Shown here in pieces: positions 31,479-51,092 of a stretch of 64,000 nucleotides of DNA. The notes beneath the pieces were generated by a model. It was not told where the DNA came from, made no database searches, and saw nothing but the letters and a program-made list of their open reading frames with translations. Origin of the DNA: Myxococcales bacterium (GTDB lineage: Bacteria; Myxococcota_A; Polyangia; Polyangiales; Polyangiaceae); the NCBI GenBank assembly GCA_016703425.1, contig JADJCA010000011.1, positions 58,050-122,049 of the forward strand, given 5' to 3'. The position numbers and the translations under genes were made by a program. The number at the start of each line of letters is the position of its first letter. Within the stretch, counting starts at the first letter, position 1.

Positions 31479-33173
31479 ATGTTTGAGCGCTTCGGATCGC
31501 CGTGTGTGATCGCCGCCGCTTCTGTCATTGTGCTGGCTGCGACCCCTGCCGCGGCGCAGGGAACGCCTCCTGCGCCTCCCGGCGGGGATGCGCCGCCTGC
31601 TGCTGCCCCGGCCCCTGCGCCGGCGGCGGGAGCTTCGGCGGGTGGGTCGCTTTCAACGGGGGGCTTGACGCTCGGCGGTAGCGCCGACGTTCCGCCGCCT
31701 CCACCGGCCGGCGGCAGCGCCGACGGGAAGCCAGAGGAAAAGTGGGAAGCCCCCACCGCCGGGTACAACGGCGCGTTCTACGTCAAGAGCAAGAACGACT
31801 GGTTTCATCTGTATTTCAACGGACGCCTGCAGTTCGACTTCACGGCGCCGTTCGCCGCGGGTGCCTACCAGGCGAACCTCTTCCCCGGGTTTCTCGTGCG
31901 CCGCATGCGCATCGAGAACAGCGGCTGCTTCGGCGACAACTTCTGTTACTCGATGCAGCCGGACTTCGGCCCGACCTCAGTGACGGGCACGAACCAAGCG
32001 GCCGCGCCGCGCACGTCGAGCATCATGGCGACGGCCTTCGTGAACTACAAGGCGCATGACCTCCTGCAGGTCATGATGGGTATCGTTCAGACGCCCTTCG
32101 GCCTCGAGGCTCGCACGACGTCGAAGTACAAGGATTTCCTCGAAGACGGCATCTCGACCAAGTTCGCCGTCCCGAACGCCACCGAGCAAGGCGTCACGCT
32201 CTGGGGCGCTACCGACAAGAACATGTTCAACTACGAAGTTGGCGTGTTCGGCGGCGATGGCGCTGCGCGCACCAACGCCGACGGTCGCTTCGACTTCATC
32301 GGTCGCGTCTTCGCGATCCCGATGGCCGGGTCGAAGGGCCCGGTGGAGAACCTTCAGATCGGCGTCTCCGGCAAGTACGGGTCGCGCGACACGAAGAAGG
32401 TCAACTACGACATGCACAGCATCACGACCGGCAACGGCGTGGCGCTCTGGAGCCCGACCTACGCGGCGGGCGCTGCTGGAACGACCCGCATTCTCCCCGC
32501 TGGCGGCCAGATGGCCTTCGGTGGTGAGCTCCGCGTTCCCGTCGAGAACTTCGACCTCACCGGTGAGTTCCACTACGTGAGCAACAAGACCCGCGAAGAG
32601 CTCGACAGCCGCCTCGGCTCGGGCAACTTCGAACGTTACGGCGAGCTCTCGGGCATCGCCTACTACGCGCAAGCCAGCTACTGGTTCGGCAAGCGCGACA
32701 TCAACGGCCAGCCGGGCTACTTCCGCATCGCGAAGATGAAGTTCAAGAAGCCCGAGGCTCCGAAGGCTGGCGACAAGCCGAAGGGTCCCGACACGGCGTG
32801 GCGCGTCCGCGTTCGCTACGACCAGGTCATGGCGAAGTACGAAGGCGCGAAGGACAACGGCGCTGTCACGCAACGCGCCGTGAACGGCGTCCAGGTTCCC
32901 TTCTACGACGGCGACATCAACATCCGGTCGCTCCAGGCGGGCGTCGACTACTTCTTCACGAAGCACGTCGGCATGCGCCTGAACTACGGCCTCTACGTTA
33001 CGCCGGACTCGGCACCGGCGACGCCGGAGCCGGGCTCCATCGCCCCGGTTGCCACGGAGAAGCAGCGCGCTGCCGTTCCCGGTAACCGTCTCGCTGCGGG
33101 CCTCAACGACGACGCTCGTCGCGGAGCCCACTCGATCCACGAGCTCATCCTGCGCGCCCAGGTTGCCTTCTGA
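31479..33173 (+). CDS. outer-membrane porin, probably OprO/OprP-like phosphate-selective porin family, with a Pro/Ala/Gly-rich N-terminal extension
   Basis: Signal peptide. About 100 aa low-complexity region (PPAPPGGDAPPAAAPAPAPAAG). Long beta-rich body. C-terminal aromatic residue (..RAQVAF). GGTGGAG RBS. Family call made from overall pattern only. Confidence 0.5.
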   Translation: MFERFGSPCVIAAASVIVLAATPAAAQGTPPAPPGGDAPPAAAPAPAPAAGASAGGSLSTGGLTLGGSADVPPPPPAGGSADGKPEEKWEAPTAGYNGAFYVKSKNDWFHLYFNGRLQFDFTAPFAAGAYQANLFPGFLVRRMRIENSGCFGDNFCYSMQPDFGPTSVTGTNQAAAPRTSSIMATAFVNYKAHDLLQVMMGIVQTPFGLEARTTSKYKDFLEDGISTKFAVPNATEQGVTLWGATDKNMFNYEVGVFGGDGAARTNADGRFDFIGRVFAIPMAGSKGPVENLQIGVSGKYGSRDTKKVNYDMHSITTGNGVALWSPTYAAGAAGTTRILPAGGQMAFGGELRVPVENFDLTGEFHYVSNKTREELDSRLGSGNFERYGELSGIAYYAQASYWFGKRDINGQPGYFRIAKMKFKKPEAPKAGDKPKGPDTAWRVRVRYDQVMAKYEGAKDNGAVTQRAVNGVQVPFYDGDINIRSLQAGVDYFFTKHVGMRLNYGLYVTPDSAPATPEPGSIAPVATEKQRAAVPGNRLAAGLNDDARRGAHSIHELILRAQVAF

Positions 33174-33545: not shown

Positions 33546-33634
33546 CATTTCGGCGCGTGGTGGAGGTTCGTTTTGGACAGCGATCCGTGCGAGACTTGGG
33601 AGGGTCGCTCTCGGCGCGAGCGCCCCCTTCATTC

Positions 33635-34537
33635 ATGGCTCCCGACGACGACGAGGTTACAAAGGTCGGTGTTACCGCCGACATCATCCCGGGCGCGCGC
33701 AGCCGCGACAAGGCGTACCTCGTAGCGCTCTCCGGCGAGACCATCGGCCAGCTCTACCCCCTTCCCGCCGGCGAGACGGTCGTCGGGCGCGGCACGCAGG
33801 CGACCGTGAAGCTCAACGACGACGGCATCTCGCGCAAGCATGCGCGGCTCCTTCGGCGCGGCGGCGAGGTGCTCGTCGAAGACATGCAGAGCGCCAACGG
33901 AACCTACGTCAACGACGAAGAGGTCCGCGGCCAACGGCTCCTCCGCGATGGCGACAAGATTCGCCTCGGTGCGACGACGGTGCTCAAGTTCACCTACCAC
34001 GACGAGGTCGAGGAGAACTACCGGCAGCGGATGTACGACGCGGCGCTCCGTGACGGCCTCACCAACGCCTTCAACAAGAAGTTCTTCCTCGACCGCTTGA
34101 ACACCGAGCTGTCCTATGCGCGAAGGCACAACAGTCCGCTCTCGCTCGTGATGTTCGACGTCGACTTCTTCAAGCGACTGAACGACTCCTTCGGCCACCT
34201 CGCCGGCGACGACGTCCTCGTGAAGCTCGCGGCCATCGGACACCAGTCCGTCCGCACGGAGGACGTCTTCGCGCGCTACGGCGGCGAGGAGTTCGCCGTC
34301 CTCTGCCGCGCTTGCCCTCTGCACCACGCCGGCGCCTTCGCCGAACGGCTGCGCGCGCTCGTCGCCACCACGTCCTTCGAGTGGAACGGGACGCGGCTGC
34401 CGGTGACCATTAGCTGCGGCGTCGCCGGGTATCCCGAGTGCGGCGCCCAGGCGCCCGAGCAGCTCATCATGGCGGCCGACGCGGCGCTCTACGAAGCGAA
34501 GCGCGCCGGCCGCGACCGCGTCATCGTCCGCTCGTAG
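33635..34537 (+). CDS. FHA domain and GGDEF domain protein (diguanylate cyclase)
   Basis: FHA (VVGRG..ATVKLNDDGISRKHARL...GEVLVEDMQSANGTYVNDE) followed by GGDEF with RYGGEEF. ATG 33635 preferred over GTG 33557, which sits 12 nt after the terminator. Confidence 0.8.
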   Translation: MAPDDDEVTKVGVTADIIPGARSRDKAYLVALSGETIGQLYPLPAGETVVGRGTQATVKLNDDGISRKHARLLRRGGEVLVEDMQSANGTYVNDEEVRGQRLLRDGDKIRLGATTVLKFTYHDEVEENYRQRMYDAALRDGLTNAFNKKFFLDRLNTELSYARRHNSPLSLVMFDVDFFKRLNDSFGHLAGDDVLVKLAAIGHQSVRTEDVFARYGGEEFAVLCRACPLHHAGAFAERLRALVATTSFEWNGTRLPVTISCGVAGYPECGAQAPEQLIMAADAALYEAKRAGRDRVIVRS

Positions 34538-35562: not shown

Positions 35563-35787
35563 TCACGGACGCAAGGAGCGCCGCTCCGCGCGCGCGAAGA
35601 GCGCTTCGCGGACGACCACGACGAGGAACATGAGAAACGACAGCGTTCCGAGCCCTTGCCCGAGCGAGAGCGCGAGCAAGATGGGCCACACGGTTGGATT
35701 GAAGACCGACCACACCATGAGCGGCAAGGCGACGATGGCCAACACGGCGGCGGCGCGAATGAGTCGCTCGTTCGAGGGTATTTTCAC
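35563..35787 (-). CDS. small hydrophobic membrane protein (about 74 aa), tentative
   Basis: GTG overlapping the upstream stop (GTGA). Two hydrophobic helices (AAVLAIVALPLMVWSV, PILLALSLGQGLGTLSFLMFLVVVV). High GC3. Confidence 0.3.
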   Translation of the reverse strand: MKIPSNERLIRAAAVLAIVALPLMVWSVFNPTVWPILLALSLGQGLGTLSFLMFLVVVVREALFARAERRSLRP

Positions 35788-36479
35788 GGGTGGCCCCCAT
35801 CGGCGGCGGGCGCCGGCATGGCATCGCGCGGAAGCCCGCCGTCTTCGAGGAGCTCTTTGCCGAGTTTGGTGACGGGATGGGCGAAGCCATGGCAGCCCGG
35901 GCTCGCGCAAGAGACCTGACCGCTTCGAAGGTCCGCTAGGGAGGACGCGTGGTCGGCCTTCTGAAGCCACCGGGGAGCTGTCATCGTGTGGCAACTGACG
36001 CAGTTGGCGTTGGGCAAGGGCCGAAGAATGCGGATCTCGTGCTTCGCCCGCTCAAGCGGCACGTTGCGAAAATCTTTCAGGTAGAGGGCCACGTGCCTCA
36101 TGCCGCCGAGTTTCGTGACGACGAAGCCATACATGCCGTAGTCCTGGTGGCAGTTGTAGCAATTGCTCGCGCCGAAGGAGCGGCTTCTCGCGTGAATGCC
36201 CGCGAGCGATGTAGTGTTCGGGTCGCTTGAATCGTTGGCGTGGGGCTCCATCACGTGGCACGAGCCGCAGAACGCGCGGGACTGGGTCGCCTGAAAACCA
36301 CTGACGTTGGCAAAGAGCGCGGTAGCGATGGGAAACACGAAGAGGCCGAAGAGCAGCCAGAGCTTCGTGGCCAGCGTAAACGCGGGCCGCCGCACGAGGT
36401 ATGTGACCAAGATTGCGATGGCGATCGACGCGCAGGCGAGCGCCAGCCATTCGATCCATGTGGCGCCGTGGTGTTGCAT
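35784..36479 (-). CDS. membrane-anchored tetraheme c-type cytochrome, NapC/NirT/NrfH-like (3 CxxCH plus 1 Cx4CH)
   Basis: Trimmed to ATG 36479. Two N-terminal hydrophobic helices, then CGSCH, CYNCH, CVSCH and CASPGCH. Confidence 0.7.
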   Translation of the reverse strand: MQHHGATWIEWLALACASIAIAILVTYLVRRPAFTLATKLWLLFGLFVFPIATALFANVSGFQATQSRAFCGSCHVMEPHANDSSDPNTTSLAGIHARSRSFGASNCYNCHQDYGMYGFVVTKLGGMRHVALYLKDFRNVPLERAKHEIRILRPLPNANCVSCHTMTAPRWLQKADHASSLADLRSGQVSCASPGCHGFAHPVTKLGKELLEDGGLPRDAMPAPAADGGHP

Positions 36480-36497
36480 CGTCGTCGGGGTGTGGCC

Positions 36498-37760
36498 ATG
36501 AAAGCGGGCCCGCAGCGCCAATGCAAGGTGCGTGAGCGAAGTCGCGTGTCGCCCCGTGACGTCCTCGCCCTCTCTGCACTCGCCGCGTCCACCCTCGTCG
36601 CGGGCGTCGCCGGGGCCGATCCGCTCCGATTGCGCGGCGACGCGCTGGTGCAAACTCGCTCCCCCGCCCCGACGGGGCTCTTGGTCCTCCGCGGCGAAGA
36701 CGGAAAGAGATTCGGCAAGACCATCGTCGACGCGGAGACCGTCGCGTGGCTCGGCGCCTTCAGTGGTGACGACGCCTCCGTAGGAGACGTCCTGACGCTC
36801 TCGGTGCGAGCGCGTCACGCGCCGACCGGTTCTGAGCTGCGCGCGGGCCGCATGGTCGTCACCATGGGAGCCATTCGCCCGACCCACGTGGACGGCGCGC
36901 GCGGGCTCGTGCGGGCCTTCGGCGGTACGACGCTCGAGGCCTTCGCCGGCGCCCCGGTGGCGCGGCGCTTCGACTACCGCACCTTCGATTTTGCGACCGG
37001 CGGTCGACTTGGTCAGTCGGTCGGTGACGCCGCGGCCGTCGGGGTGTCCTACGCGCAGCGGCACAATGGCGCGAGCCTCGCCGACGAGGAGGTTGGCGCG
37101 GACGTGGCGGTCGCGCCAGTTCCCTGGTTGTCGCTAGCGGGCCGCAGCGCCATGGATCTCGTGAGCCGCGGCGTAACCGACGCGCTTGGCTCGCTCTCGC
37201 TCACGGGCCAGCGAACGAAGGCGGAGCTCTTCGCCACGCACCGTTCGCCAGGACGGCTCCTGCCGGCCACGTCGCTCTTCTCCGTGCTGGGCGACTACGC
37301 CGCGACGAGTGCCGGCACCACGCTTCGCCTCCGCGCGTTCCCGCGCCTCGACTTGATCGCGAGCGGCGTGGTGCAAACGCAGGCAAAGGACGTCGGGGGG
37401 CAGGGCTCGGGGCGCGTGGTGCTCGCCCTCGACGACGATTGGAATGGTTCCATCTTGCTCGAAGGTCGGCGCGTCACGTTGGGACAGGCGCGTTGGAGCG
37501 GAGTCCGAACGGCGGCCGTCATTCCCCTCAGTCGCGCCTACCGACTCGGCACCGAGATCGAACTGGTGCGGCCCGACGATCCGCGCGGTCGTGGCTCGCT
37601 GTGGCCTTGGGCCTTCGTCAGCATGAGCCGTCGCTCCGCGTCGGGTCTCGAATTTGGCGTCGGCGTCGAGGCCTCAAGCGGCCCCGATCGCCGTGAAGAG
37701 GTCGTGGCGCTCGGGCGCGTATCGGTCGAGTGGGACTCGCTGCGGGGCGCGACGCGATGA
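36498..37760 (+). CDS. secreted beta-strand-rich protein, candidate outer-membrane porin-like partner of the downstream cytochromes
   Basis: Trimmed to ATG 36498 (signal peptide LALSALAASTLVAGVAGA). Many short amphipathic alternating segments. Stop overlaps the next ATG (ATGA). The start is only 18 bp from the divergent NrfH-like start, so one of the two starts may be wrong. Confidence 0.5.
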   Translation: MKAGPQRQCKVRERSRVSPRDVLALSALAASTLVAGVAGADPLRLRGDALVQTRSPAPTGLLVLRGEDGKRFGKTIVDAETVAWLGAFSGDDASVGDVLTLSVRARHAPTGSELRAGRMVVTMGAIRPTHVDGARGLVRAFGGTTLEAFAGAPVARRFDYRTFDFATGGRLGQSVGDAAAVGVSYAQRHNGASLADEEVGADVAVAPVPWLSLAGRSAMDLVSRGVTDALGSLSLTGQRTKAELFATHRSPGRLLPATSLFSVLGDYAATSAGTTLRLRAFPRLDLIASGVVQTQAKDVGGQGSGRVVLALDDDWNGSILLEGRRVTLGQARWSGVRTAAVIPLSRAYRLGTEIELVRPDDPRGRGSLWPWAFVSMSRRSASGLEFGVGVEASSGPDRREEVVALGRVSVEWDSLRGATR

Positions 37761-38791
37761 GAACAGGGTGGCTCTTCGCGTGCCTCGGCCTCGCGTCTTG
37801 CGCGGGCCTTTTGGGCATCAAATCCAGCGACCGAGAGCGCAGCTTCGAGCACCGCGCTCACCTCGTGCGCGGCGTGTCTTGCACGAGCTGCCACCTCGGG
37901 ATGGGCCAAGCTGGCGACACTGGGCCCCTCCATCTTCCGAGCAAGACGCGCTGCCTCGAGTGCCACACCGCTGCCCACGACCCTGGCGACTGCGCGAGCT
38001 GCCACGGGCGATCAAGCGCTCGGCAGGGGGCGGAGCTCGCCAAGCGGCATCTCGTCTTCGATCATCGCTCGCACATCGCGCGTCAGGACGGCCAGTGCGT
38101 GCGCTGCCACACGGAGGCCGGCAGCAAAGACGCGCCTTCGCTGCGGCCCGCCATGGCTGTTTGCTTGTCGTGCCACGCGCACAAGGATCAATGGAAGACT
38201 CGCGAGTGTGACGCGTGCCACGTTGATCTTCCGGCGGAGCTGGCGAAGCCGTCGAGCCACGTGGTGCACGAAGGAGACTTTCTTCGTGAGCACGGCGTGC
38301 GAGCTGCGAGCAGTCGCGATCTCTGCGCGACGTGCCACGCGGAGCCCTTCTGCGCCGCTTGCCACGGCACCACGGCGCCCACGCTGCCGCATCGCCTCGA
38401 CTTCGGGAAGACCACGAGCCCGTCCTTGCATCGCGCCGGCTTCCGTCTCAGGCACGCCGACGAAGCGCGCGCGAACCCGGGCCTCTGCACGACCTGCCAC
38501 AGCGACGAGCGCACGTGCAGCGACTGCCACGCAGCGAGGCGCGTGGGCGCAGCGCCCGGCATCCGAACACCACACCCGCCCGGGTGGGTCCGCGCTCGCG
38601 GTGGCGAACACGGGCGCGCCGCACGCATGGAGCCGGGCTCCTGCGCCGCGTGTCACGGCGGCGCCGGTGAAGCCCTGTGCGTTGGCTGTCACAAGGTCGG
38701 AGGCCCCGGTGGCAACCCGCACGGTCCGGGCTTCGGTAGTGCGCTCGACAAGGGGCGCGATCAACCGTGCCGGCAGTGTCACGCGCCATGA
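37757..38791 (+). CDS. multiheme c-type cytochrome lipoprotein, 13 CxxCH motifs
   Basis: Lipobox FACLGLASC. 13 canonical CxxCH in about 340 aa. Translationally coupled on both sides (ATGA). Confidence 0.8.
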   Translation: MRTGWLFACLGLASCAGLLGIKSSDRERSFEHRAHLVRGVSCTSCHLGMGQAGDTGPLHLPSKTRCLECHTAAHDPGDCASCHGRSSARQGAELAKRHLVFDHRSHIARQDGQCVRCHTEAGSKDAPSLRPAMAVCLSCHAHKDQWKTRECDACHVDLPAELAKPSSHVVHEGDFLREHGVRAASSRDLCATCHAEPFCAACHGTTAPTLPHRLDFGKTTSPSLHRAGFRLRHADEARANPGLCTTCHSDERTCSDCHAARRVGAAPGIRTPHPPGWVRARGGEHGRAARMEPGSCAACHGGAGEALCVGCHKVGGPGGNPHGPGFGSALDKGRDQPCRQCHAP

Positions 38792-40587
38792 AGAAATGGC
38801 GCGTTCTTTTGCTCGTGATCCTGGTCGCGGCGCTCGCTCTGGCGTTCGCGTCTTTTCGCACCGTCGTGGAGCGTCCCGCGCCCGTCACGCCGACTCAGTT
38901 CATCCCGCCCACCTGGTCCGAGGCACGCAAGTCTCCGATGCACGAGGCTCACGTCGGCAAGCGAAAGATCGCCTGCGCCGAGTGCCACGGCGCGGGCTCC
39001 GAAGCGGGCTCTGAAGCGCGCTTCGACGCGCCACCCGACCTGGCCGCTTGCGCGCGCAGCGACTGCCACGCGGAGGCGAGCGCCCGGGCCCACGTGGGGA
39101 GCACGTCGCAGAAGACCACGTGCCTGACGTGCCACAGTTTTGCGGCGACGCCGACGACAACGCCGTGCGTCGGATGCCACGAGAAGAAGCCGCTCGATGG
39201 CGGCGCCGCCGGAGTGGCGGCAAACCTCGCGCATCATGCGACGCCGGACGCGAAGTGTGGCGCTTGCCACAAGGTGCATGCGGCCGCCGACGCCGGTCGA
39301 CGAAAGAACGGCGACTGCTCGGGCTGCCACGCCGACGCCGGCGACGGCCATGGGGCCCAGGCGCGCAAAGAGCCTGACGCGTCGCTCGATCCGGCGACGT
39401 GCGCCAGTTGCCACGGACCCCACGAGGGGAAGGCCGCCGCAACGCAGCGCTGCGTCTCGTGCCACGCGCCGACCGAAGCGCGCGGTCCGGCGTCCGCGCG
39501 CCACGGGCTCGCGGGCCAGAACGCTCCCCGCGTGCTCGTCGCGAACATCGGGCCGCGGAGCCACGAAGCGTGCACGAGCTGCCATGCGCCGCACGACACG
39601 AAGCTCGAGCACATAAAGCCGTGCGCCGGCTGTCACGAGCGCCAACGCGGCGCGCTTCGCCCGGGCCACGACCAGTGCGTCGGCTGCCACAAACCCCACG
39701 AGAACGTCGATGCGGCGCGCGCGGCTTGCGCTTCCTGCCACACGGCGAAGGTCGCGCTCGCTGCGGCCCGCGTGCCCGAGCATGCACGCTGCGAGAGCTG
39801 CCACTCGCCCCACGCGGCGACGCCGGCGAAAGACGCGTGCCGCCGGTGCCACGAGCCCGTCTCCCATGGCGTCTCTCACGGCAAGGCAGGCGAGTGCGTC
39901 CAGTGTCACGTGCCTCACACGGCGCCGCCGAATCAAGGGGCGGCGCGCGCATCGGCCTGCGTCACTTGCCACAAGAACGTGCCGGCGGCGGCCCACGCCG
40001 CGAAGGCCACGTGCGTCGGATGCCACAAGCCGCATGGGTTTGGCGGTCTCCAGGCCTCCACCACGTTCTGCAGCAGCTGCCACCAAGAGGCGGCGAAGGC
40101 CGTGCGGACAGGCCATGGCGACTGCGCCAAGTGTCACGCGTCCGTTCACACACCGAAGCAGACGCAGCCGTGCGGCTCCTGCCACAAGGAGGAAGCGAAG
40201 ACTTCACCCAAGGGCCATCAGCGTTGCGAAAGCTGCCATGCCCCGCACCAAGGGAGCTCGCCAAAGGTTGCGAGTTGCACCGGTTGCCATCAAAAAAATG
40301 GCACCGGTCCCCACAAGAACCTCGCCAAAGGGTGCGCCACGTGTCACCGGCCTCACGGTCCGAAGGGCGTCGCGACGCCTCCCGCGTGCAAGACATGTCA
40401 CGTTCAATCGACGCTGCCCGGGCTTCACCAGAAGCCATCCCACGGCGCGTCATGCGAACGTTGCCACTCTTCGCACGAGGCGCCGCGAGCCGATCGAGCG
40501 TCGTGCACCGGCGGATGTCACACGGATCGTCGCGGGCACCAGCCCGATGCAAAGGTCTGCAACGGGTGCCACATCTTCAGCGATTGA
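38788..40587 (+). CDS. giant multiheme c-type cytochrome, about 27 heme-binding motifs (25 CxxCH, 1 Cx4CH, 1 Cx3CH) in about 600 aa, N-terminal signal/anchor
   Basis: Counted motifs directly in the translation (CAECH ... CNGCH). N-terminal hydrophobic segment (LLLVILVAALALAFASF). Confidence 0.8.
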   Translation: MKKWRVLLLVILVAALALAFASFRTVVERPAPVTPTQFIPPTWSEARKSPMHEAHVGKRKIACAECHGAGSEAGSEARFDAPPDLAACARSDCHAEASARAHVGSTSQKTTCLTCHSFAATPTTTPCVGCHEKKPLDGGAAGVAANLAHHATPDAKCGACHKVHAAADAGRRKNGDCSGCHADAGDGHGAQARKEPDASLDPATCASCHGPHEGKAAATQRCVSCHAPTEARGPASARHGLAGQNAPRVLVANIGPRSHEACTSCHAPHDTKLEHIKPCAGCHERQRGALRPGHDQCVGCHKPHENVDAARAACASCHTAKVALAAARVPEHARCESCHSPHAATPAKDACRRCHEPVSHGVSHGKAGECVQCHVPHTAPPNQGAARASACVTCHKNVPAAAHAAKATCVGCHKPHGFGGLQASTTFCSSCHQEAAKAVRTGHGDCAKCHASVHTPKQTQPCGSCHKEEAKTSPKGHQRCESCHAPHQGSSPKVASCTGCHQKNGTGPHKNLAKGCATCHRPHGPKGVATPPACKTCHVQSTLPGLHQKPSHGASCERCHSSHEAPRADRASCTGGCHTDRRGHQPDAKVCNGCHIFSD

Positions 40588-42112
40588 CGCGACCGTCGAC
40601 GTGGTTCTTCGCGCCCGCCGGCGTCAGCGAGAGCGTTCCGACAAAACCGCTCGTGAGGCCGCTGTGGCAAATGCTCCCTCCGCACTGGGTCGCCGCGGCG
40701 TGAGGAGGAGGCGGCGGCGTGGCGTGGCACGCGCCGCAGGCCCGGGCCGCCGGCCCGCTGTTCCACGCCGGCGTCTGAAGCGAACCGCCGACGCCCGTAT
40801 GGCAAGCGGTCTCGGAGCATGTCTTGGTCGCCGCGTCGTAGCGGGCGCGGGCGCCACCGGCGAGCGCCGGGCCTGCGAGGCGAACGACGGCACCGGCACC
40901 GACCGGATGTTTGCCGACGGGGATCACGTGGCACGTCGCGCACGCGACGGGCCGCGACGATGACGGCTTTGCGTGCGCGGTGTGAGCCCCCGTCGTGGGC
41001 CACGGATCGTCGCCGCTACCGTGGCAAGCGCCGCACTGCCCCGAGCCGTCGCCCAGGTCGATGCGGCCGTTCAAGTGTAGGCGAACAGGCTGCGTGAGCG
41101 AGGCGCCGTCGGCCGCCACTTCATGGTGACACTGTCGACAGGGTCCATCGTAGTGAGACGCGGGCGGCGAGCGATGGCAGTCGTTGCACCCCACGCTGGC
41201 CTCGCCCCATGCCGGCGTCTCGCGGTTGCCGCCCCGCGCGTGGCAACTTCCAGCGCAGCGCTTGGACGCTGGGTCGAAGGTGGCGCCACGGCCGGCGAGC
41301 GTCTCGTCGAGCCAAACTTCAACGTGACCGTCGCCGTGCGCGCCGGCCAACTCGAAGGTCGGCGGAACAGGATGACACGTCTTGCACGCGCGACCCTCCG
41401 CCTGCGTCGCCCCGGCATTGACATGCGCGCGATGCGAGTCGCGCGGCGTGCTCGGCGCCGCGCCGCATGAATTCTTCGGCGGGCTCGCGCGGTCGCCGTC
41501 GCCGTGGCACGTGCCGCAGGCGAGCGGTCCGCCCTCGCGCGAGTGGCATGAGGTGCACGCCGTCGCACCGGGCGCTGCGACGCGGCCCGGCGCCCCGCTC
41601 AGCGCTCCGCTGTTGGGGGCGCCTTGATGGCACTTGCCACACGCGTCGACATCCGCAGCGTCAAGCATCGGTCGGTAACGCGAGGCACGAAGGGTAGACG
41701 CATGCCCCTCCGGCAGCCTCGGATCGCCGTAGCGCGGCGAGTGCACGCCTCCCGCCGTCCCCGGTGCGCCTTCGTCGAGCCAGCGCGTGAGCAGCGCCCG
41801 CTCCTCGGCCGAGAGGAGCGCCGCGTGATCGGAGCGCGCGAGCGCATCGACGATGGCCGGCGGTTGGCCGGCGGTCGCCGATCGGCCCGCGGCAGTGCAG
41901 GACATAACGCTCACGTAAGAGTCAGCCTTCCATCCCGCCGCCGGTGCAGGGCCTGCGTGACACGGCGCGCATCGTGCGCCCAGAAGGGCGCCGACGCCGT
42001 CGCGATAGGAGACCACGGCCGGCCGTTCAACACGTTCGCTCGTGCACGCGGAACTGGCGCCCAGGGAAAACAAGAGCGATAAGGAGACCCTCTTGAGGCC
42101 CGGTCGAAACAC
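40577..42112 (-). CDS. multiheme c-type cytochrome, about 13 heme motifs (10 CxxCH, 1 Cx3CH, 2 Cx4CH), secreted
   Basis: Trimmed to GTG 42112 giving MFRPGLKRVSLSLLFSLGASSAC. Motifs CAPCH...CGGSICH. Convergent with the 27-heme gene (11-bp 3' overlap). Confidence 0.7.
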   Translation of the reverse strand: MFRPGLKRVSLSLLFSLGASSACTSERVERPAVVSYRDGVGALLGARCAPCHAGPAPAAGWKADSYVSVMSCTAAGRSATAGQPPAIVDALARSDHAALLSAEERALLTRWLDEGAPGTAGGVHSPRYGDPRLPEGHASTLRASRYRPMLDAADVDACGKCHQGAPNSGALSGAPGRVAAPGATACTSCHSREGGPLACGTCHGDGDRASPPKNSCGAAPSTPRDSHRAHVNAGATQAEGRACKTCHPVPPTFELAGAHGDGHVEVWLDETLAGRGATFDPASKRCAGSCHARGGNRETPAWGEASVGCNDCHRSPPASHYDGPCRQCHHEVAADGASLTQPVRLHLNGRIDLGDGSGQCGACHGSGDDPWPTTGAHTAHAKPSSSRPVACATCHVIPVGKHPVGAGAVVRLAGPALAGGARARYDAATKTCSETACHTGVGGSLQTPAWNSGPAARACGACHATPPPPPHAAATQCGGSICHSGLTSGFVGTLSLTPAGAKNHVDGRVNR

Positions 42113-42182
42113 ACCGCGAGGGTGCTCGGTGGGAACGACAAATGCAAGGCCCGGGCGGCGATTGATGAAAGGGAGCGCGGTT

Positions 42183-43508
42183 ATGATTCTGTCTCGATCA
42201 ACGGGGATCCTCTTTGCAGTTTCACTCGTGGGTCTGAGCGGCCTGGTGGGCTTCGCGTGCAGCGGAAACGACGGCAAGGACGGAGCTGCTGGCGCCCTCG
42301 GCGCTGCCGGCGTCGCGGGCCCGCAAGGACCGTCTGGCGCCCCGGGCGCCGTGGGCCCCGCCGGCGACGGCGGCGCCGGCGCAGTCCTCTCCGGTGCCTG
42401 CACGACGCCGTGCCACACCTTCAACGGCGTGGTCGATCAGTGGCGCTTCAGCAATCACTCGCACCCGCAGGAGAACGAGATCGGCGGCGGGGTCTGCGGC
42501 AACTGCCACGGCGTCGATGGCATCGAGCAGCGCGTGGGGGGCAACTACGTGCTCAGCGCGGACGCCGGTGCGCTCCCCACCAACGTCGCGCAAGGTCACA
42601 TCAACTACAAGACCGTGTCCGGGTCCTCGACGGAGATCACGTACGCGGGCGCATCGACCATCGGTCGCATCCACTGCGCGACGTGCCACGAGTTCAACTC
42701 AACGACCGATCCGCACGTGACGGGCAAATACACGGAGCGACAGGCGCCCATTCGTGTCGCCGGTGGCGCCAACGACGTGGCCTACATCGAAAAGACGCTC
42801 GCCGACGCGGGCGGCGCTGTCGTGGGTCAGTCGGTCGGATACAAGACCGCGAACGTCTGCATCTTCTGCCACAAGTCCCGCAAGGACATCTCGGTCTACA
42901 TCACCGCCAACAACAACCTGTCGCGCAACTGGGGACCGCACGAAGGTCCGCAAGCCGACATCTTCACGGGCAAGGGCGGCTACGAGTTCGCGGGCAAGAG
43001 CTACGGCACGGCCGTCCACACCACCATCGCGAACGGCTGCGTCGACTGCCACATGCAGGCGGTGGCCGGCAACAGCAACGTGCCGGACCACACGATGAAG
43101 CCCAAGGTGGCCTACTGCAAGACGTGCCACACGACGTACACCGGCACGGACTTCAACATCGATTCGGGCCGGACCATCGTGAAGGGGCTTCTCACGGAGC
43201 TTCAGCAACTCCTCGACGAGCGCGGCTTGCTCACGCGCACGCCCGCAGCGCCGTACCAAAACCTCACGGACGAGGAGAAGGCCGACGGGCAGTTCCACCT
43301 CGACAAAGCGAGGAAGCCGGCCGGCACCGTCGACGCGGATTTGGCGGGTGCACTCTACAACTACCTGCTCGCGGCGCGCGGCAAGGACCTCGGTGTCCAC
43401 AACCCGCGCTACACCAAGCAGTTGCTCTTCGACTCGATCGTGAAGCTCGGAACGCCGGGCGACGGCGGAACGTACACGCCGAAGACGCTCACCATCCGGC
43501 CGAACTGA
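42183..43508 (+). CDS. lipoprotein with collagen-like (Gly-X-Y)12 repeat fused to a hexaheme c-type cytochrome domain
   Basis: Lipobox LVGFAC. GKD-GAA-GAL-GAA-GVA-GPQ-GPS-GAP-GAV-GPA-GDG-GAG triplets. CTTPCH (Cx3CH) plus CGNCH, CATCH, CIFCH, CVDCH, CKTCH. AAAGGGAG RBS before ATG 42183 (ATG 42165 is an alternative). Confidence 0.75.
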   Translation: MILSRSTGILFAVSLVGLSGLVGFACSGNDGKDGAAGALGAAGVAGPQGPSGAPGAVGPAGDGGAGAVLSGACTTPCHTFNGVVDQWRFSNHSHPQENEIGGGVCGNCHGVDGIEQRVGGNYVLSADAGALPTNVAQGHINYKTVSGSSTEITYAGASTIGRIHCATCHEFNSTTDPHVTGKYTERQAPIRVAGGANDVAYIEKTLADAGGAVVGQSVGYKTANVCIFCHKSRKDISVYITANNNLSRNWGPHEGPQADIFTGKGGYEFAGKSYGTAVHTTIANGCVDCHMQAVAGNSNVPDHTMKPKVAYCKTCHTTYTGTDFNIDSGRTIVKGLLTELQQLLDERGLLTRTPAAPYQNLTDEEKADGQFHLDKARKPAGTVDADLAGALYNYLLAARGKDLGVHNPRYTKQLLFDSIVKLGTPGDGGTYTPKTLTIRPN

Positions 43509-43631: not shown

Positions 43632-45404
43632 ATGCTCCGAACGTCAGCGGTCCCCTTCGTTCTCCTCGCGCATCTCGTTACCGCTTGCAGCACCGACATC
43701 CCGACTGACGCCGCCGCCGCGGGCGACGCGGACGAGGGTCCCGGCGGCGCCGTCGCGGTCGGCGACGTCGCGCCCCGGCCCATTGCGCCGCCGGAGGAAT
43801 CGCCGGTGGCCTGCGGCGGTGTGGACTGCACGAAGCTGCCTCACGTCGACCCGTCACGGGTCACCTGCCAACAAGGCCAGTGTCAGGTGGCAAGGGCCTG
43901 CGCTCCAGGCTGGGGCCACTGTGGCAACGATCCGACAACCGGCTGCGAGACCGACCTCACGGCGACCGCCAGCTGCGGCGCTTGCTCAGTCCAGTGCGGT
44001 GGCCCGACCCCTCTGTGCGTGCCCGAGGAGGGCGGCGCGGCGCGCTGCGTCTCCTCCTGCGAGGGCACCCGAACGCCCACGGCCTGCGGCAACACGTGCG
44101 TGGACACCCAGAACGACCCCCTTCACTGCGGGGGGTGCGCGCCCTGCGGCGTTACCCTGAACGGTTCGGCCACTTGCAGTGGAGGCCTCTGTGGGCTTGC
44201 TTGCAATCCCGGGTTTCACCGCTGCGGGTCGACCTGTCGCGAAGACACGAGCGTCACCGCCTGTGGCCCTTCGTGCGCGACCTGCGCCGCGCCGCCACAC
44301 AACGGTGTCGCCGCGTGTGTTGCGGGAGCGTGCACCGTCGCTTGCGACGCCGGCTTCTACGCCGATGGCGGCACGTGCAAGCCGACTTACACGGTGAGCG
44401 GCGCTGCCGCCAACGTCGTCGCCTTCGACGTCGACAGCGCGGGCGGTATGCTCGCCGTCGCGCGCGGCACGGGAGAGCTGCGCTTCCAATGCTTCAGCCC
44501 CAACGGCATCCCGATGGGACCCGACCAACAGCTGACCTCGTTCGATGCAGCAACGACGGCGCCCGGGCGGGTGATGGTGGCGCGCTCCCGGGTCACCAAG
44601 CAGTCGCTTGTGCTCTGGCACGTCAGCGGACCGTCGGCCCACGAGGCGCATTACGCGTACGTGAGTGCGTCATGTCAGATTCAGAAGTCCGCGCCCCTCG
44701 CCACGACCGGCGGCAACATCTACCTCCAAGGTGTGGCCATCGACGATCAAGGCTTAGGCGCCGCCCTCTTGAACCTCGCGGGGCCCAAGGTCCGAGAGTT
44801 GGTTCAGTTCGACAAGAGCGGTGCCCCCCTCTCGGTCAACGACTTCGAAGCGTTCGGCGCCTACGACAGCCACTTGGCCATGCGACGCACGACCGGCGAG
44901 ACGATCATCGTAACGTCCACCTACGTGGCGCCGAAGTTTGAGCGTCACTACCGCCGCTTCAGCGGCGCCGGCGCCGCCATCGACCCGGAGTTCATCGCGA
45001 TCAACGGCCTCCTCGGCTCCGGTAGCTACGTGCGCGTCGGCATGGACGACGACGGTGCCTTCGTCGTCCTCGGCGAGATGACACGAATCCCCAACGCATG
45101 GGGGGCGACGTTCCACAACGCGACGGGCGCCGTCGTCGCCACGCTACCGGCCGCTGGCATGGCGGGCTATGCCGACACATTCGTGCCCGTGACGAGCAGC
45201 GGCGACTTCGTTTGGCCCATTCGTACCGCCATCACTTCGGCGCGCGAGCGCCGTTCCCCGGCGGGAGTCTTGGCCGGCGCGTCACCGTGGGGGTCGCCCT
45301 ACGCCAACACGCTCGAGCTGCGCCTCGATGCGAACGACTCGACGTACATGATCCTCAGCGGTGGCACTGGACGCACCGTCAAGAAGGACCCCTTCGCGCT
45401 CTGA
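43632..45404 (+). CDS. Cys-rich repeat lipoprotein (myxobacterial cysteine-rich repeat-like N-terminus, beta-propeller-like C-terminus)
   Basis: Lipobox LVTAC. About 200 aa with regularly spaced Cys (CGxC/CxxC... repeats about 35-40 aa apart). High GC3. Confidence 0.65.
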   Translation: MLRTSAVPFVLLAHLVTACSTDIPTDAAAAGDADEGPGGAVAVGDVAPRPIAPPEESPVACGGVDCTKLPHVDPSRVTCQQGQCQVARACAPGWGHCGNDPTTGCETDLTATASCGACSVQCGGPTPLCVPEEGGAARCVSSCEGTRTPTACGNTCVDTQNDPLHCGGCAPCGVTLNGSATCSGGLCGLACNPGFHRCGSTCREDTSVTACGPSCATCAAPPHNGVAACVAGACTVACDAGFYADGGTCKPTYTVSGAAANVVAFDVDSAGGMLAVARGTGELRFQCFSPNGIPMGPDQQLTSFDAATTAPGRVMVARSRVTKQSLVLWHVSGPSAHEAHYAYVSASCQIQKSAPLATTGGNIYLQGVAIDDQGLGAALLNLAGPKVRELVQFDKSGAPLSVNDFEAFGAYDSHLAMRRTTGETIIVTSTYVAPKFERHYRRFSGAGAAIDPEFIAINGLLGSGSYVRVGMDDDGAFVVLGEMTRIPNAWGATFHNATGAVVATLPAAGMAGYADTFVPVTSSGDFVWPIRTAITSARERRSPAGVLAGASPWGSPYANTLELRLDANDSTYMILSGGTGRTVKKDPFAL

Positions 45405-46521: not shown

Positions 46522-47265
46522 CTAGCGCGGGGCCACCGGCGGCGGCTTGCTCGACGTCTGGCGTCGCTCCGCGCGCGAGCGCGGATGCCGGATGTCCTTG
46601 CCGCGCGCCATGAAGACCACGAGCTCGGCGAGGTTGGTCGTGTGGTCGGCGATCCGCTCCAGGTATTTGGCGATCGATTGGGCCCGCGTGCATCGGTAGA
46701 TGTTGCGCGGGTTCTCCATCATGTAGGTCAATAGCTCGCGGAAAATCTGGGCGTAATAGGCATCGACCGTCGAGTCCCGTTCGATGACCTCTTGGGCCCG
46801 GTCGGCGTCGCCCTCCACGAACGCGTCGAGCGCCTCGCGAAGCATGGCCTGCGTGGCCTCCGCCATGTCGGAGAGGTTCGTGTACGGCTGGAGCGGCGGC
46901 TCTTCGTTGAGCTCGCGGACGCGTTCGCAGATGTTGACCGTCGAGTCGCCGATGCGTTCGATGTCGGTCGTGAGCTTGAGCGCCGTGGTGATGAAGCGGA
47001 GGTCTGACGCGACCGGCTGGCGACGCGCGAGGATGCGAAGGCATCGCTCGTCGATCTCCACCTCGAGCCGATTGATCTCTCGATCGCGCTCCATCGTTCG
47101 TTCGGCGAGCTCGCTGTCGCGATCAATGAGGGCCTTCATGGCCGAGACCAACATCTCTTCGACCTTGGAGCCCATGAGGATGAGGCGCTCTCGAAGGGTT
47201 CGGAGCTCGGCTTCGTATTGGAGGTCGGTATGGCTCTTCACGACGTGGTCCTCATCATCACCCAA
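46522..47265 (-). CDS. phoU: phosphate signalling complex protein PhoU
   Basis: Two PhoU repeats (..[20 protein letters not shown].. and ..[17 protein letters not shown]..). Directly downstream of pstB. Confidence 0.85.
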
Positions 47266-48108: not shown

Positions 48109-48948
48109 TCAACGGCTCACACGGTGTCGAACGAGGAGGCGCGAGAGTATGTTCAAGCCAAGCACGAACGCGATGAGGACCAGGGCCGCGGCCCACGCTT
48201 GCTGGTGCCAGTCGTCGTAGGGCGCGACGGAATACTGGAATATTTGCACCGTGAGCGTCGACGTCGGCTGGTCGATGCCTTCGGGCCAGTTGCGGTTGTT
48301 CGCCGAGGTGAAGAGCAGCGGCGCCGTCTCGCCGGTGCCGCGCGCCACGGCCAACATGATGCCCGTCACAATGCCTGGTAGCGCCGTCCGCACGACGACA
48401 CGCAAGACGGTGCGCCAACGCGGCACGCCCAGCGCTAGGGCCGCCTCTCGGAGCGCGTTGGGGACGAGCTTCATGAGCTCTTCCGTCGTTCGGGCGATGG
48501 TCGGCAACATCAAGATCGCGATGGCGATGGAGCCGGCGATGGCCGACTGCCGCTTCATGGGAATGACGACGACGGCGTAGACGAACATGCCGACGACGAT
48601 GGACGGCACACCGGAGAGGACGTCGGCGGTGAAGCGAACGGCGTAGCCGAGGCGACTCTTGCCGTACTCCGCGAGGTAGACCCCCGCCAAGATCCCGGCG
48701 GGGATCGCCATCGCGCACGCCATGGCGACGATGGTGACGGTGCCGACGATGGCGTTTGCGACGCCGCCGCCGAGCTCGCCGACGGGCTTGGGCAAGTGCG
48801 TGAGGAAGTCGAGGCTGAGCCCCTTGATGCCTTCGCGGCCGACGAAGAGCAGGATGCTGATGAGCGGGATCATGGCGCACAGCGTCGCCACCAGGCACGC
48901 CCAGCGGAGCACGACGTCGAGCGTCTTGCGGGTGCGGTAGCTCGCCAC
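48109..48948 (-). CDS. pstA: phosphate ABC transporter permease PstA
   Basis: Six TM helices, a PstA-family sequence, and its position between pstC and pstB. Confidence 0.85.
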
Positions 48949-48949
48949 G

Positions 48950-49924
48950 CTAGCTCCTCGCCCCTTCCGGCAAGCGCCCCACGCGCCAGACGAGGAGGCG
49001 AGCCACCACGTTGAGCACGAAGGTCACGGCAAAGAGCAAGAGCCCGATCGTCGTGAGCGCCGTGAGATGAGCCCCCGAGGCGGCTTCTGCGTACTCGTTC
49101 GCGATGACGCTCGCCATCGTGTAGCTGGGCGCAAAGAGCGACGCGGAGATGTCGGCGCGGTTGCCGATGATCATCGTGACGGCCATGGTCTCGCCGAGGG
49201 CTCGGCCGAGGCCGAGCATCGTGGCGCCGACCATGCCGGAGCGCGCAAACGGCAAGACGACCTGCGATATCGCCTCGACGCGTGTGGCGCCGAGGGCCAA
49301 CGCGTTCTCTTTCAAGATCCCCGGCACCGCTACGAGGACTTCGCGCATGACCGACGAGATGGTCGGCAGGATCATGATGGCGAGGATGACGCCCGCCGTG
49401 AGCATGCCGTAGCCGAGGTGCGGGCCTTGAAAGAGCGGAAGGAAGCCCAGCGTGCTCTCGAGCTTCGGCTGCACCGTCTCACGCATCCACGGCGCGAGAA
49501 TGAAGATGCCCCACAGGCCGTAGACGACGCTGGGAACGGCCGCGAGCAGCTCGACGACGAAGCCCAAGGGACGTCGGATGCGGGGCGGCGCGAGCTCCGT
49601 CAGGTAGACCGCGATGCCGAGCGCCACGGGAACGGCCAAGAGGAGCGCCAAGAACGACGAGACCAAGGTCCCGAAGACGAACGGCGCCGCGCCGAAGCTC
49701 TCGCGCACCGGGTCCCAGTCGGTGCGCCAGAGGAACGCGATGCCGAAGCGGCTGAAGCCGCTCCGTGCGTCCGACGCCAAGGAGAGGATGATCCACGCGA
49801 TGAGTACGATGAGCAAAATGCCGAAGGCCGCGGTGACTCGTCGGAAGATCGAGTCGCCGCGGCTCGGGCGCGGGCCGCTCTCCGCAGGGGGAGCGGCCGC
49901 GTGAGCGGTGCTGGTCGTGTTCAC
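48950..49924 (-). CDS. pstC: phosphate ABC transporter permease PstC
   Basis: Six TM helices with an EAA-like loop. Sits between pstS and pstA. Confidence 0.85.
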   Translation of the reverse strand: MNTTSTAHAAAPPAESGPRPSRGDSIFRRVTAAFGILLIVLIAWIILSLASDARSGFSRFGIAFLWRTDWDPVRESFGAAPFVFGTLVSSFLALLLAVPVALGIAVYLTELAPPRIRRPLGFVVELLAAVPSVVYGLWGIFILAPWMRETVQPKLESTLGFLPLFQGPHLGYGMLTAGVILAIMILPTISSVMREVLVAVPGILKENALALGATRVEAISQVVLPFARSGMVGATMLGLGRALGETMAVTMIIGNRADISASLFAPSYTMASVIANEYAEAASGAHLTALTTIGLLLFAVTFVLNVVARLLVWRVGRLPEGARS

Positions 49925-49940
49925 GGTCGGGCTGCGCCGG

Positions 49941-51050
49941 TCACTTGCCGACGAGGAGCGCCTTTCCTTCGGCCTTAAGTAGCTTCACCTTGGCCTCGGC
50001 TTTGGCGACGACGGGAGCCGGGAGCTTGCCGTAGTGGAGCGCTTCGGCGTGCTCTTGCCCTTCGTGGAGACCCCACCAGAGGTAGTTGGCGAGCGCTTGG
50101 CCCTTCTGCGCGTTCGCGTTTTCTTCGTAGACGAGGACATAGGAAAACGCGGCGATGGGGTACGCCGCCTCGCCGGGTGCGTTGGTGATGGAGACGCGAA
50201 GGTCGTCCGGCATCTTGTCGGCGACGCTGGCAGCGGCGGCGGTGACCGATGCGAGGGCCGCGTCGGTGAACTTGCCTGCCTGGTTCTTGAGTGACGCCGT
50301 GGCGAGGTTATTTTGCTTGGCGTAGGCGAGCTCGACGTAGCCGATGGAGCCGGGCGTCGACTTCACGCTTCCCGTCACGCCTTCGTTGCCCTTGCTCGAG
50401 ATTCCGGCGGGCCACTTGACGCTCTTGCCAGCGCCGACCTTGTCTTTCCACGCGGGGCTGACCTTCGCGAGGTAGTCGGTGAACACCGCCGTCGTGCCGC
50501 TTCCGTCGGAGCGGGCCACCACCGTGATGTTGGTGGCGGGAAGCTTCGCGTCGGGGTTGTCCGCCACGAGCTTCGGGTCGTTCCACTTCTTGATCTCCCC
50601 CATGAAGACGCCCGTGAGCGCCTCGGGCGTTAGCTTGATGGCGGCCTTGGCATCGGGGACGTTGTACGTCACGACGACGGCGCCGAGGGTCATCGGCACG
50701 TGGTGCAGCTTGCCCTTCGCCTTGGCGAGTTCTTCGTCGCTCATGGGCGCGTCGCTGGCGCCGAAGTCGACGGTCTGGTCGGTGATCTGCTTGATGCCGG
50801 CGCCGGAGCCCACCGACTGGTAGTTGACCTTCACCTGGGGGTTCGCCTTGCCGAACTCGGAGATCCACTTCGAGTAGAGCGGGAACGGGAAGGTGGCGCC
50901 TGCGCCGTTTAGGCTGACGGTGTCGCTCTTGGGGGCGACGGCGACGGTCGTCGACGCGCTGCTGGAGGGGGTCGCGGAGCTCGAGTCGCTGCCTTTGCAG
51001 CCCATCACGAGGAGGCCAGCAGCAACGAGGACGGTGGAGGCGTTTCGCAT
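49941..51050 (-). CDS. pstS: phosphate-binding lipoprotein PstS
   Basis: Lipobox LVMGC. A PstS-family sequence (..GAGATFPFPLY.KW...SGSG..) with a Ser/Thr-rich tether. Confidence 0.9.
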   Translation of the reverse strand: MRNASTVLVAAGLLVMGCKGSDSSSATPSSSASTTVAVAPKSDTVSLNGAGATFPFPLYSKWISEFGKANPQVKVNYQSVGSGAGIKQITDQTVDFGASDAPMSDEELAKAKGKLHHVPMTLGAVVVTYNVPDAKAAIKLTPEALTGVFMGEIKKWNDPKLVADNPDAKLPATNITVVARSDGSGTTAVFTDYLAKVSPAWKDKVGAGKSVKWPAGISSKGNEGVTGSVKSTPGSIGYVELAYAKQNNLATASLKNQAGKFTDAALASVTAAAASVADKMPDDLRVSITNAPGEAAYPIAAFSYVLVYEENANAQKGQALANYLWWGLHEGQEHAEALHYGKLPAPVVAKAEAKVKLLKAEGKALLVGK

Positions 51051-51071
51051 GCGCGCACAAGTACGCGGCGA

Positions 51072-51092
51072 ATGTGACGATTGGGTGACAGC
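51072..51092 (-). promoter_or_regulatory. candidate Pho box upstream of pstS
   Basis: On the pstS strand: cTGTCACccaatcGTCACA, two TGTCA-like 7-mers with 11-bp periodicity, 25-45 nt upstream of the pstS ATG. Coordinates approximate to within a few nt. Confidence 0.35.

Follow-up and report, generated by a model that had tools for sequence, protein, structure and literature searches.

Porin–cytochrome conduits are the known means of electron exchange between Gram-negative bacteria and minerals, humics, electrodes or partner cells; work on them has covered only a few anaerobes and iron oxidisers. Here, we describe a cluster of six genes for a predicted outer-membrane barrel protein and five multiheme c-type cytochromes, located on a 64,000-nt stretch of a Myxococcales genome (assembly GCA_016703425.1, contig JADJCA010000011.1, positions 58,050 to 122,049; this whole stretch is referred to as the window, position 1 being its first letter). 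A gene for a NapC/NirT-like cytochrome on the minus strand is followed on the plus strand by those for the barrel, a 13-heme lipoprotein (c13) and a 599-aa cytochrome (c27), on the minus strand by that for a convergent lipoprotein cytochrome (conv) and, again on the plus strand, by that for a collagen-like hexaheme lipoprotein (coll6; Table 1).

The initial annotation of this locus, made from the letters alone, had counted five cytochromes with roughly 63 heme-binding motifs, and the exact figure proved to be 63 (56 CXXCH and seven CX3-4CH between positions 35784 and 43508), with the genes where it had placed them. In a six-frame count over the whole window, 56 of the 58 CXXCH motifs fell within these five open reading frames (ORFs), i.e. 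at a density far above chance. The 13 hemes ascribed to c13 and the ~27 ascribed to c27 were likewise recovered, the latter as 25 canonical and two variant motifs. The ‘13-heme’ label of the convergent protein held for the motif number, but not for their type, as only ten are canonical and three atypical. Lipoboxes are carried by c13, conv and coll6.

The genes are tightly packed. ATGA overlaps join the barrel stop to the c13 start (37757–37760) and the c13 stop to the c27 start (38788–38791), in line with the translational coupling originally proposed for the plus-strand trio. A hairpin predicted by pattern scanning encloses the second of these overlaps, and translation of c27 might thereby depend strictly on ribosomes finishing c13. 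The 3′ ends of c27 and conv overlap by 11 bp (40577–40587), leaving no space for an intergenic terminator, and terminator-like matches in our scan mostly lay inside coding sequence. The divergent NapC-like and barrel genes start, as called, 18 bp apart (36479–36498), so that either each promoter is embedded in the opposite gene or one of the starts is located further in; for the NapC-like protein, an N-terminal hydrophobic segment that is kept in homologues argues for the long form. No sigma-70-like sites emerged from the promoter scan. The start of conv is tentatively placed at a GTG (42112), the ORF remaining open to 42424.

Table 1. Features of the porin–cytochrome locus and of neighbouring genes (window positions)
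Feature	Position	Strand	Remarks
NapC/NirT-like cytochrome	35784–36479	−	3 CXXCH + CASPGCH
Barrel protein	36498–37760	+	420 aa; no heme motif
Top conserved motif of the barrel family	37242–37295	+	RSPGRLLPxTSLFSVLGD; invariant columns R249–D266
c13, lipoprotein cytochrome	37757–38791	+	344 aa; 13 CXXCH
Hairpin	38781–38804	+	ACGCGCCATGAAGAAATGGCGCGT; 9-bp stem; pattern scan; encloses the ATGA of c13 stop and c27 start
c27, cytochrome	38788–40587	+	599 aa; 25 CXXCH + CARSDCH + CTGGCH
conv, lipoprotein cytochrome	40577 to ~42112	−	~511 aa; 10 CXXCH + CAGSCH, CSETACH, CGGSICH
coll6, collagen-like hexaheme lipoprotein	42165–43508	+	447 aa; 5 CXXCH + CTTPCH
Collagen-like segment of coll6	42264–42380	+	residues 34–72, GNDGKDGAAGALGAAGVAGPQGPSGAPGAVGPAGDGGAG; 13 uninterrupted G-X-Y triplets directly behind the lipidated Cys
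MglB-like Roadblock/LC7 protein	6849–7367	+	E = 8e-19
MglA-like Ras/Arf-like GTPase	7415–8077	+	adjoins the MglB-like gene
OprP-like porin (Porin_O_P)	31479–33173		PF07396, E = 7e-14
FHA-GGDEF diguanylate cyclase	33557–34537	+	GGDEF E = 2e-43; FHA E = 5.5e-18
ctaA	34521–35534	−	PF02628, E = 1.6e-31
Secreted Cys-rich protein	43632–45404	+	590 aa; sole match weak, CPL1-like (E = 7.6e-4)
PhoU	46522–47265		E = 5e-50
Three ORFs	~48109–51218	−	pst-transporter-like by look

The barrel protein and its cytochromes

An AlphaFold2 (AF2) model of the barrel protein, built with 33 homologues, reached a mean predicted local distance difference test score (pLDDT) of 72, with 80–93 over most of the barrel. 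In it, a signal-peptide helix precedes 20 antiparallel strands, connected by turns of mostly 2–4 residues, whose faces alternate between hydrophobic (mean Kyte–Doolittle value +1.34) and polar (−0.70). A Foldseek search of this model against the PDB returned only beta-barrel proteins of outer or organelle membranes and barrel complexes, with the ushers FimD and PapC at the top. The model and its matches support the prediction of a 20-strand outer-membrane beta-barrel acting as a porin-like sheath, as the initial annotation had suggested from the alternating segments, and speak against the alternative of a soluble protein without a barrel. Neither a plug domain nor a regular insert is seen in the model, in which residues 34–65 and 253–266 are of low confidence and might include a folded-in segment. 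Unless filled, 20 strands with no evident plug would leave a hole in the membrane, and we infer that a partner cytochrome occupies the lumen. Arginine makes up 11% of the protein, with many of these residues being invariant.

At the sequence level, the barrel matched no Pfam or NCBIfam family at E ≤ 0.1, the MtrB_PioB family included; its profile found no PDB sequence even at E ≤ 10, and a comparison with plasmids gave no match. Its more than 800 homologues are all unnamed or ‘hypothetical’ in database entries. RSPGRLLPxTSLFSVLGD, the best-conserved motif among these barrels, is located in the sole long loop of the model (20 residues, between strands 11 and 12), a region of low pLDDT without regular secondary structure, and has an equivalent, LPRTSIFSVF, in a distant barrel group described below. 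This loop might face the lumen or contact a cytochrome.

The gene directly coupled to the barrel encodes c13, the proposed barrel-inserted wire. In an alignment of 32 sequences, all 13 CXXCH motifs and the lipobox cysteine (LAAC) are invariant, as are, fully or nearly, ~16 further histidines, which fits bis-His electron-transfer hemes. Thirteen hemes were counted in 68 of 71 c13 homologues. With 26.5 aa per heme, c13 matches the Pfam family Cytochrome_C7 above threshold (PF14522, 53.8 bits), and its family profile finds ActA of alternative complex III (ACIII; 8k9e_A, 4.5e-10) and a fragment of GSU1996 (3ouq, 2.8e-7); no MtrA chain was matched in the profile and PDB sequence searches. The AF2 model of c13, built from the 32-sequence alignment, was too poor for a fold search (pLDDT 55.8; predicted template modelling score 0.35).

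Even more densely packed, c27 has 22.2 aa per heme and matches PF14522 above threshold (72 bits over six stretches), besides PF14537 (63 bits) and PF02085 (43 bits). Its C-terminal half follows a regular ~18-residue repeat, in which CxxCHxPH alternates with CxxCH-x7-9-H. Homologues mostly contain 24–27 CXXCH motifs (range 13–32) and begin with a long hydrophobic signal or anchor, in most cases without a lipobox; c27 might be a periplasmic wire or capacitor. The convergent protein, conv, scored 61.7 bits against TIGR01904 (CxxxxCH/CxxCH domain; cut-off 27), and its homologues have lipobox-like N-termini and, in 37 of 58 cases, ten CXXCH motifs. These features make it a candidate OmcB-like surface cytochrome.

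The third lipoprotein, coll6, bears out its description as a collagen-like hexaheme lipoprotein, since lipobox, G-X-Y run, five CXXCH motifs and CTTPCH were all found. The lipobox cysteine, the CxxPCH, all five CXXCH and six further histidines are invariant among 27 aligned sequences, and homologues carry 6–17 G-X-Y triplets (mode 11–12). The collagen-like segment stays under the Pfam cut-off (Collagen, 22.4 vs. 27.2 bits), while the coll6 profile matches the collagen of BclA at 4e-5. The stalk, which may be trimeric, would be ~11 nm long (39 residues with a rise of ~0.29 nm each). At the position of coll6, locus L031 has an ORF of 1004 aa with 15 + 4 heme motifs, possibly a fusion or an artefact of ORF calling.

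For the remaining cytochrome, the earlier assignment as an NrfH/NapC-like membrane tetraheme protein stood at the level of the NapC/NirT family (PF03264, 42 bits vs. a cut-off of 24.1) and failed at that of the NrfH equivalog (TIGR03153, 40.5 vs. 134.2); the protein also scored below the NapC and TorC equivalog cut-offs of NCBIfam. All 43 homologues have CXXCHxM at heme 1. The fourth motif, CAS[PA]GCH, recurs in the four homologues compared for it, and two N-terminal hydrophobic segments, rather than one, are present throughout the homologues inspected. This protein is thus a putative quinol dehydrogenase, classed by sequence as a tetraheme membrane cytochrome of the NapC/NirT family. No NrfA gene is present beside it. 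None of the five cytochromes reached the threshold of the NrfA, Hao or octaheme families, and none has a CXXCK motif. Simple Nrf- or Hao-type enzymes were rejected on these grounds, a weak profile likeness of the C-terminal half of coll6 being the only such trace, and the wire-like nature assumed at the outset agrees with this lack of NrfA or Hao membership.

Conservation of the module in Polyangia

A scan with the barrel, taking one genome per species, yielded 114 loci, and synteny was analysed over 81 species-level loci. The best 80 of the 114 all stem from Polyangia-type Myxococcota, namely metagenome-assembled genomes (MAGs) of Labilithrix, Polyangiaceae and Kofleriaceae as well as the cultured Labilithrix luteola DSM 27648; c13 is 100% identical to a protein from a ‘Myxococcales bacterium’ MAG with locus prefix IPG50_, and the closest named relatives are Labilithrix species. 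By tblastn, the barrel was present in 81 loci, c13 in 73, the NapC-like gene in 66, c27 in 62, conv in 60 and coll6 in 47, with most shortfalls attributable to contig ends. Both junctions of the trio are kept across most loci, with an NTGA overlap between barrel and c13 in 69 of 73 and between c13 and c27 in 57 of 62, and the NapC-like gene, where present (66 loci), is mostly the divergent neighbour immediately preceding the barrel. L. luteola possesses the whole module, with AKJ09_07126 as its barrel, in the same order, except that its NapC-like gene lies ~1 kb downstream of coll6. We regard the module as vertically conserved and self-contained.

The outer genes come in two arrangements: in Labilithrix-like loci (L001–L020), coll6 is divergent from conv, and in many Polyangiaceae (L026–L064) the two share a strand, with coll6 upstream. 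In several genomes, the module occurs as two or three paralogues (L053 and L061 in CAWCPA010000009.1; L047, L054 and L060 in JBKQKP01; L021 and L023 in JALHOE01; L029 and L072 in CAWKAF01), one pair being 180 kb apart on a single contig.

An exhaustive profile search (E ≤ 1e-3) extended the barrel family to 557 clusters at 50% identity. Among them is a distant, full-length group whose homology with the barrel is clear in spite of ~20% identity (hhalign: 100% probability, E = 3.6e-47). On two contigs of this group (L082 and L083), the barrel gene is followed, at a 4-nt overlap, by one for a 349-aa cytochrome with 12 or 13 CXXCH motifs that aligns with c13 over its full length (32–33% identity; E = 1e-32 and 8e-51). 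The third gene of these clusters encodes a cytochrome rich in CX3-4CH, which in L083 is a conv homologue (27% identity, E = 3e-24, 11 + 4 hemes, lipobox); both c27 and coll6 are absent from L082 and L083. The ancient unit would thus consist of the barrel, a ~345-aa cytochrome with 12–13 hemes and a cytochrome with atypical motifs, which suggests roles assigned somewhat differently from those in the initial annotation. This distribution suggests that the NapC-like protein, c27 and coll6 are additions that accompany the core in Polyangia, with c27 as a lineage-specific element outside the deepest core. In L082 (‘bacterium K8I61’), domains of the rhodanese-HTH, DsrE and FCSD-like flavoprotein types follow the barrel–cytochrome genes (12050–14261), hinting at a link to sulfur metabolism.

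The genes flanking the module in the window, including ctaA, the OprP-like porin, the FHA-GGDEF protein and PhoU, were found in none of the 81 loci, from which we conclude that the module is self-contained and the adjacency of ctaA incidental. Heme A synthase, listed in the initial annotation as lying immediately downstream of the NapC-like gene, is therefore a real neighbour, but was rejected as a part of the system. The cytochrome module sits between phosphate-related genes (the OprP-like porin upstream, and PhoU followed by three pst-transporter-like ORFs downstream), an arrangement that is not conserved beside the module elsewhere. The diguanylate cyclase between the porin and ctaA lies outside the conserved module, and the secreted Cys-rich protein just 3′ of coll6 is not conserved with it. 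Further away, an mglB gene and an adjoining mglA-like gene, noted previously, were found again and fit a myxobacterial origin of the DNA.

Proposed electron path and competing explanations

We consider it moderately probable that the six genes constitute a conserved porin–cytochrome module of the Polyangia, through which electrons would pass between the quinol pool and the exterior of the outer membrane, most likely outward. In the path that we propose, which starts from the fold and family assignments above and whose further steps we infer, the NapC/NirT-type tetraheme protein would oxidise quinol in the inner membrane, and c27, with its 22 aa per heme and N-terminal signal or anchor, would relay or store the electrons in the periplasm. 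The lipid-anchored c13, co-translated in stoichiometric amounts, would fill the plug-less, Arg-rich barrel and conduct electrons across the outer membrane, as MtrA does in MtrB. The lipoproteins conv and coll6 would reside on the outer face, coll6 being held off the membrane by its stalk. The acceptors would be insoluble or macromolecular, e.g. Fe(III) or Mn(IV) oxides or humics, and oxygen depletion in soil aggregates or sludge flocs might be the occasion for their use.

Several observations weigh against this path. MtrA and OmaB have been described as soluble in the periplasm, unlike the lipoprotein c13. As the model of c13 is unusable, its rod shape and its fit into a 20-strand barrel are conjectured by analogy. 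L. luteola, the sole cultured host named, is an aerobe, and we know of no report of metal respiration in it. The C-terminal half of coll6 (hemes 3–5 plus the C-terminal helices) matches several NrfA chains in profile searches (2e-4 to 1e-3), which may reflect remote fold relatedness, and coll6 could accordingly be an enzyme rather than the end of a wire. Lastly, the direction of electron flow is not readable from the sequence, no feature of which fixes it.

This last point leaves room for the same hardware to run inward, collecting electrons at the cell surface, with Fe(II), Mn(II), reduced humics or minerals as donors, like MtoAB–CymA (ES-1), PioAB or PCC3, and passing them to the quinone pool via the NapC-like protein or to oxidases. 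Uptake would suit the hosts, which, by record titles and by L. luteola, seem to be Polyangia with an aerobic or microaerophilic life in soil, lakes, peat and activated sludge. Yet these organisms are known as heterotrophic predators, for which Fe(II) oxidation would bring an auxiliary benefit at most, and neither Cyc2 nor a multicopper oxidase nor a carbon-fixation context was seen in the 64-kb window. Published clusters point both ways: in Fe(II) oxidisers, proposed porin–cytochrome clusters combine a partner of the CymA/NapC type with cytochromes very rich in heme (PMC5566968), whereas a lipoprotein cytochrome with atypical motifs has been described for the reductive porin–cytochrome (Pcc) clusters of Geobacter (PMC4245776). 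On balance, inward flow, the main rival, appears unlikely.

A lower probability still attaches to a periplasmic respiratory branch, in which the NapC/NrfH-like protein would feed coll6 as a reductase of nitrite, hydroxylamine, sulfite or tetrathionate, with c13 and c27 as relays or capacitors and the barrel as a substrate porin. Its supporting evidence comprises the NrfA matches of coll6 and a hit to Cytochrom_C552 (PF02335, E = 6e-4), together with the NrfH-type CXXCHxM of the NapC-like protein and the location of its gene in L. luteola, near coll6 and not beside the barrel. However, the Cytochrom_C552 hit remains under the cut-off (19.3 vs. 24.1 bits), as does that to the NCBIfam NrfA model NF008339 (13.6 vs. 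595); coll6 lacks CXXCK, and its six invariant non-motif histidines for six hemes fit an all-hexacoordinate protein. Nor do the genetics favour such an enzyme, coll6 being the least conserved member (47 of 81 loci, against 73 for c13), the 4-nt overlap of the barrel being with c13 and not with coll6, and the distant clusters holding barrel and cytochromes without coll6. A solute porin would, moreover, require a constriction or a plug, and the barrel model has neither. More improbable again is that the barrel serves as a dedicated, usher- or Slam-like export pore for lipoprotein cytochromes instead of a permanent sheath of a heme wire. Three of the four cytochromes in question (c13, conv and coll6) are indeed lipoproteins, and the best Foldseek matches are translocation barrels of ushers; yet no Pfam usher or DUF560/Slam match and no TPR or plug domains were found, and barrel and c13 genes occur strictly 1:1 and translationally coupled, suggestive of a stoichiometric complex.

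Extending the outward path that we favour, apparently aerobic, predatory Polyangia, among them Labilithrix and relatives that abound in soil, peat, lakes and activated sludge, might hold a widespread, unrecognised system for extracellular electron transfer (EET). Its outer end would be structurally new, a lipid-anchored hexaheme head kept ~10 nm away from the membrane by a collagen-like, perhaps trimeric stalk, fed via c13 in a minimal 20-strand barrel and buffered by c27. We put this forward tentatively, as it seems somewhat unlikely in full. If true, mineral, humic or cell-to-cell electron exchange would extend to a major group of ‘aerobic’ soil bacteria. At least 114 species-level genomes and 557 protein clusters at 50% identity represent the module, in Polyangia regarded as aerobic predators. 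A functional module would revise the view of myxobacterial redox flexibility in soils and wastewater flocs, and would add a compact barrel–wire pair and a collagen-stalked cytochrome to the bioelectronic parts list. As the cultured L. luteola DSM 27648 has the whole module, the hypothesis is directly testable.

Comparison with known conduits

By the operational definition, a porin–cytochrome cluster joins the gene of a barrel directly to that of a multiheme cytochrome, an extracellular cytochrome and an inner-membrane redox protein being optional (PMC5566968). Here, c13 starts 4 nt before the end of the barrel gene, and the cluster, which includes predicted extracellular lipoproteins and a NapC/NirT protein, falls under this definition. 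Published Pcc clusters have barrels with 18–22 trans-membrane motifs, partners with 5–14 hemes and outer-membrane cytochromes with atypical CX3-15CH motifs (PMC4245776), ranges that accommodate the 20 strands, the 13 hemes and the atypical motifs of conv. The architecture thus supports a Pcc type, with the likeness to the clusters of Geobacter and Anaeromyxobacter drawn from published sizes and counts. A profile search with the distant barrel for Geobacter or Anaeromyxobacter proteins gave ten matches, none of them named, and cluster look-ups of distant barrel representatives led to ‘hypothetical protein’ entries only.

As in OmbB–OmaB–OmcB and OmbC–OmaC–OmcC of Geobacter sulfurreducens, the barrel gene lies beside multiheme genes, and a lipoprotein outer-membrane cytochrome carries atypical CX3-nCH motifs (PMC4245776). 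This organisation, already suspected in the initial annotation, draws support from the barrel model, the NTGA coupling in ~80 genomes and the distant relatives. The two or three module copies in several MAGs likewise recall the duplicated omb-oma-omc clusters of Geobacter. The partner, in contrast, is a 13-heme lipoprotein here and an 8-heme soluble protein in Geobacter, and three components are extra in the module, namely the 27-heme cytochrome, the hexaheme protein on its collagen-like stalk and the neighbouring NapC/NirT quinol dehydrogenase (putative), in Polyangia that are probably aerobic.

Membership in the MtrAB/MtoAB/PioAB group was rejected, given no PF11854 match, no TIGR03508 match for c13 and the 20 strands of the barrel; against the same DmsE/MtrA decaheme model, c27 reached 26.7 bits vs. 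a cut-off of 192.2. The solved structure of MtrB has 26 strands. Its predicted trans-membrane motifs number 28 (PMC4245776). With 22–26 aa per heme, c13 and c27 stay below the ~33 aa of MtrA, a value cited as a wire-like feature (PMC5566968). PCC3 was rejected as well, as the barrel has just 20 strands and the six conserved genes do not include a five-transmembrane (5-TM) inner-membrane protein bearing two HX13H motifs. Shared with PCC3 and PCC4 of Fe(II) oxidisers are the definition of the type by gene clustering and the very heme-rich, repetitive cytochromes with few residues per heme, whereas PCC3, in Proteobacteria, combines porins of up to 42 predicted strands with a 5-TM, di-heme-b-like partner in place of a NapC/NirT cytochrome (PMC5566968).

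Like GSU1996, GSU2210 and ACIII ActA, c13 and c27 are built from heme-packing units of the c7/c3 type. GSU2210 also has 27 hemes. In contrast to these proteins, c13 and c27 are genetically tied to a barrel, have no match to TIGR04257 (nanowire_3heme), and c27 shows a C-terminal unit of ~18 residues per heme. OcwA of Thermincola potens is a nonaheme terminal reductase with an NrfA-like fold on the surface of a Gram-positive host, without a lipid anchor or collagen-like stalk; similarly, coll6 may be a cell-surface EET cytochrome related to NrfA-type enzymes.

The initial annotation regarded the configuration as unusual and undescribed. No published description of the module was found in our literature searches, the nearest being a survey-level remark that Myxococcota MAGs contain many novel putative EET cytochrome clusters (bioRxiv 10.1101/2022.03.26.485925); its novelty is tempered by the two-gene pcc cluster (Group IV of Shi et al. 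2014) of Anaeromyxobacter, which encodes a porin-like protein and a 338–344-aa, 12-heme cytochrome (Adeh_3392) without outer-membrane cytochrome genes (PMC4245776). No Anaeromyxobacter locus was among the best 80 of the 114 barrel loci. Both systems occur in Myxococcota and pair a barrel with one cytochrome of similar size (344 aa with 13 hemes in c13; 349 aa with 12 or 13 in its distant relatives). The Anaeromyxobacter cluster is the closest published analogue and the best candidate for a true homologue. What sets the present module apart is the linkage of four further heme proteins to that pair, amounting to an unannotated, widely distributed version of the porin–cytochrome theme. Its unusual parts are a 13-heme lipoprotein partner, a putative wire of 27 hemes and a hexaheme protein with a collagen-like stalk, and its hosts belong to a lineage that EET has not been linked with.

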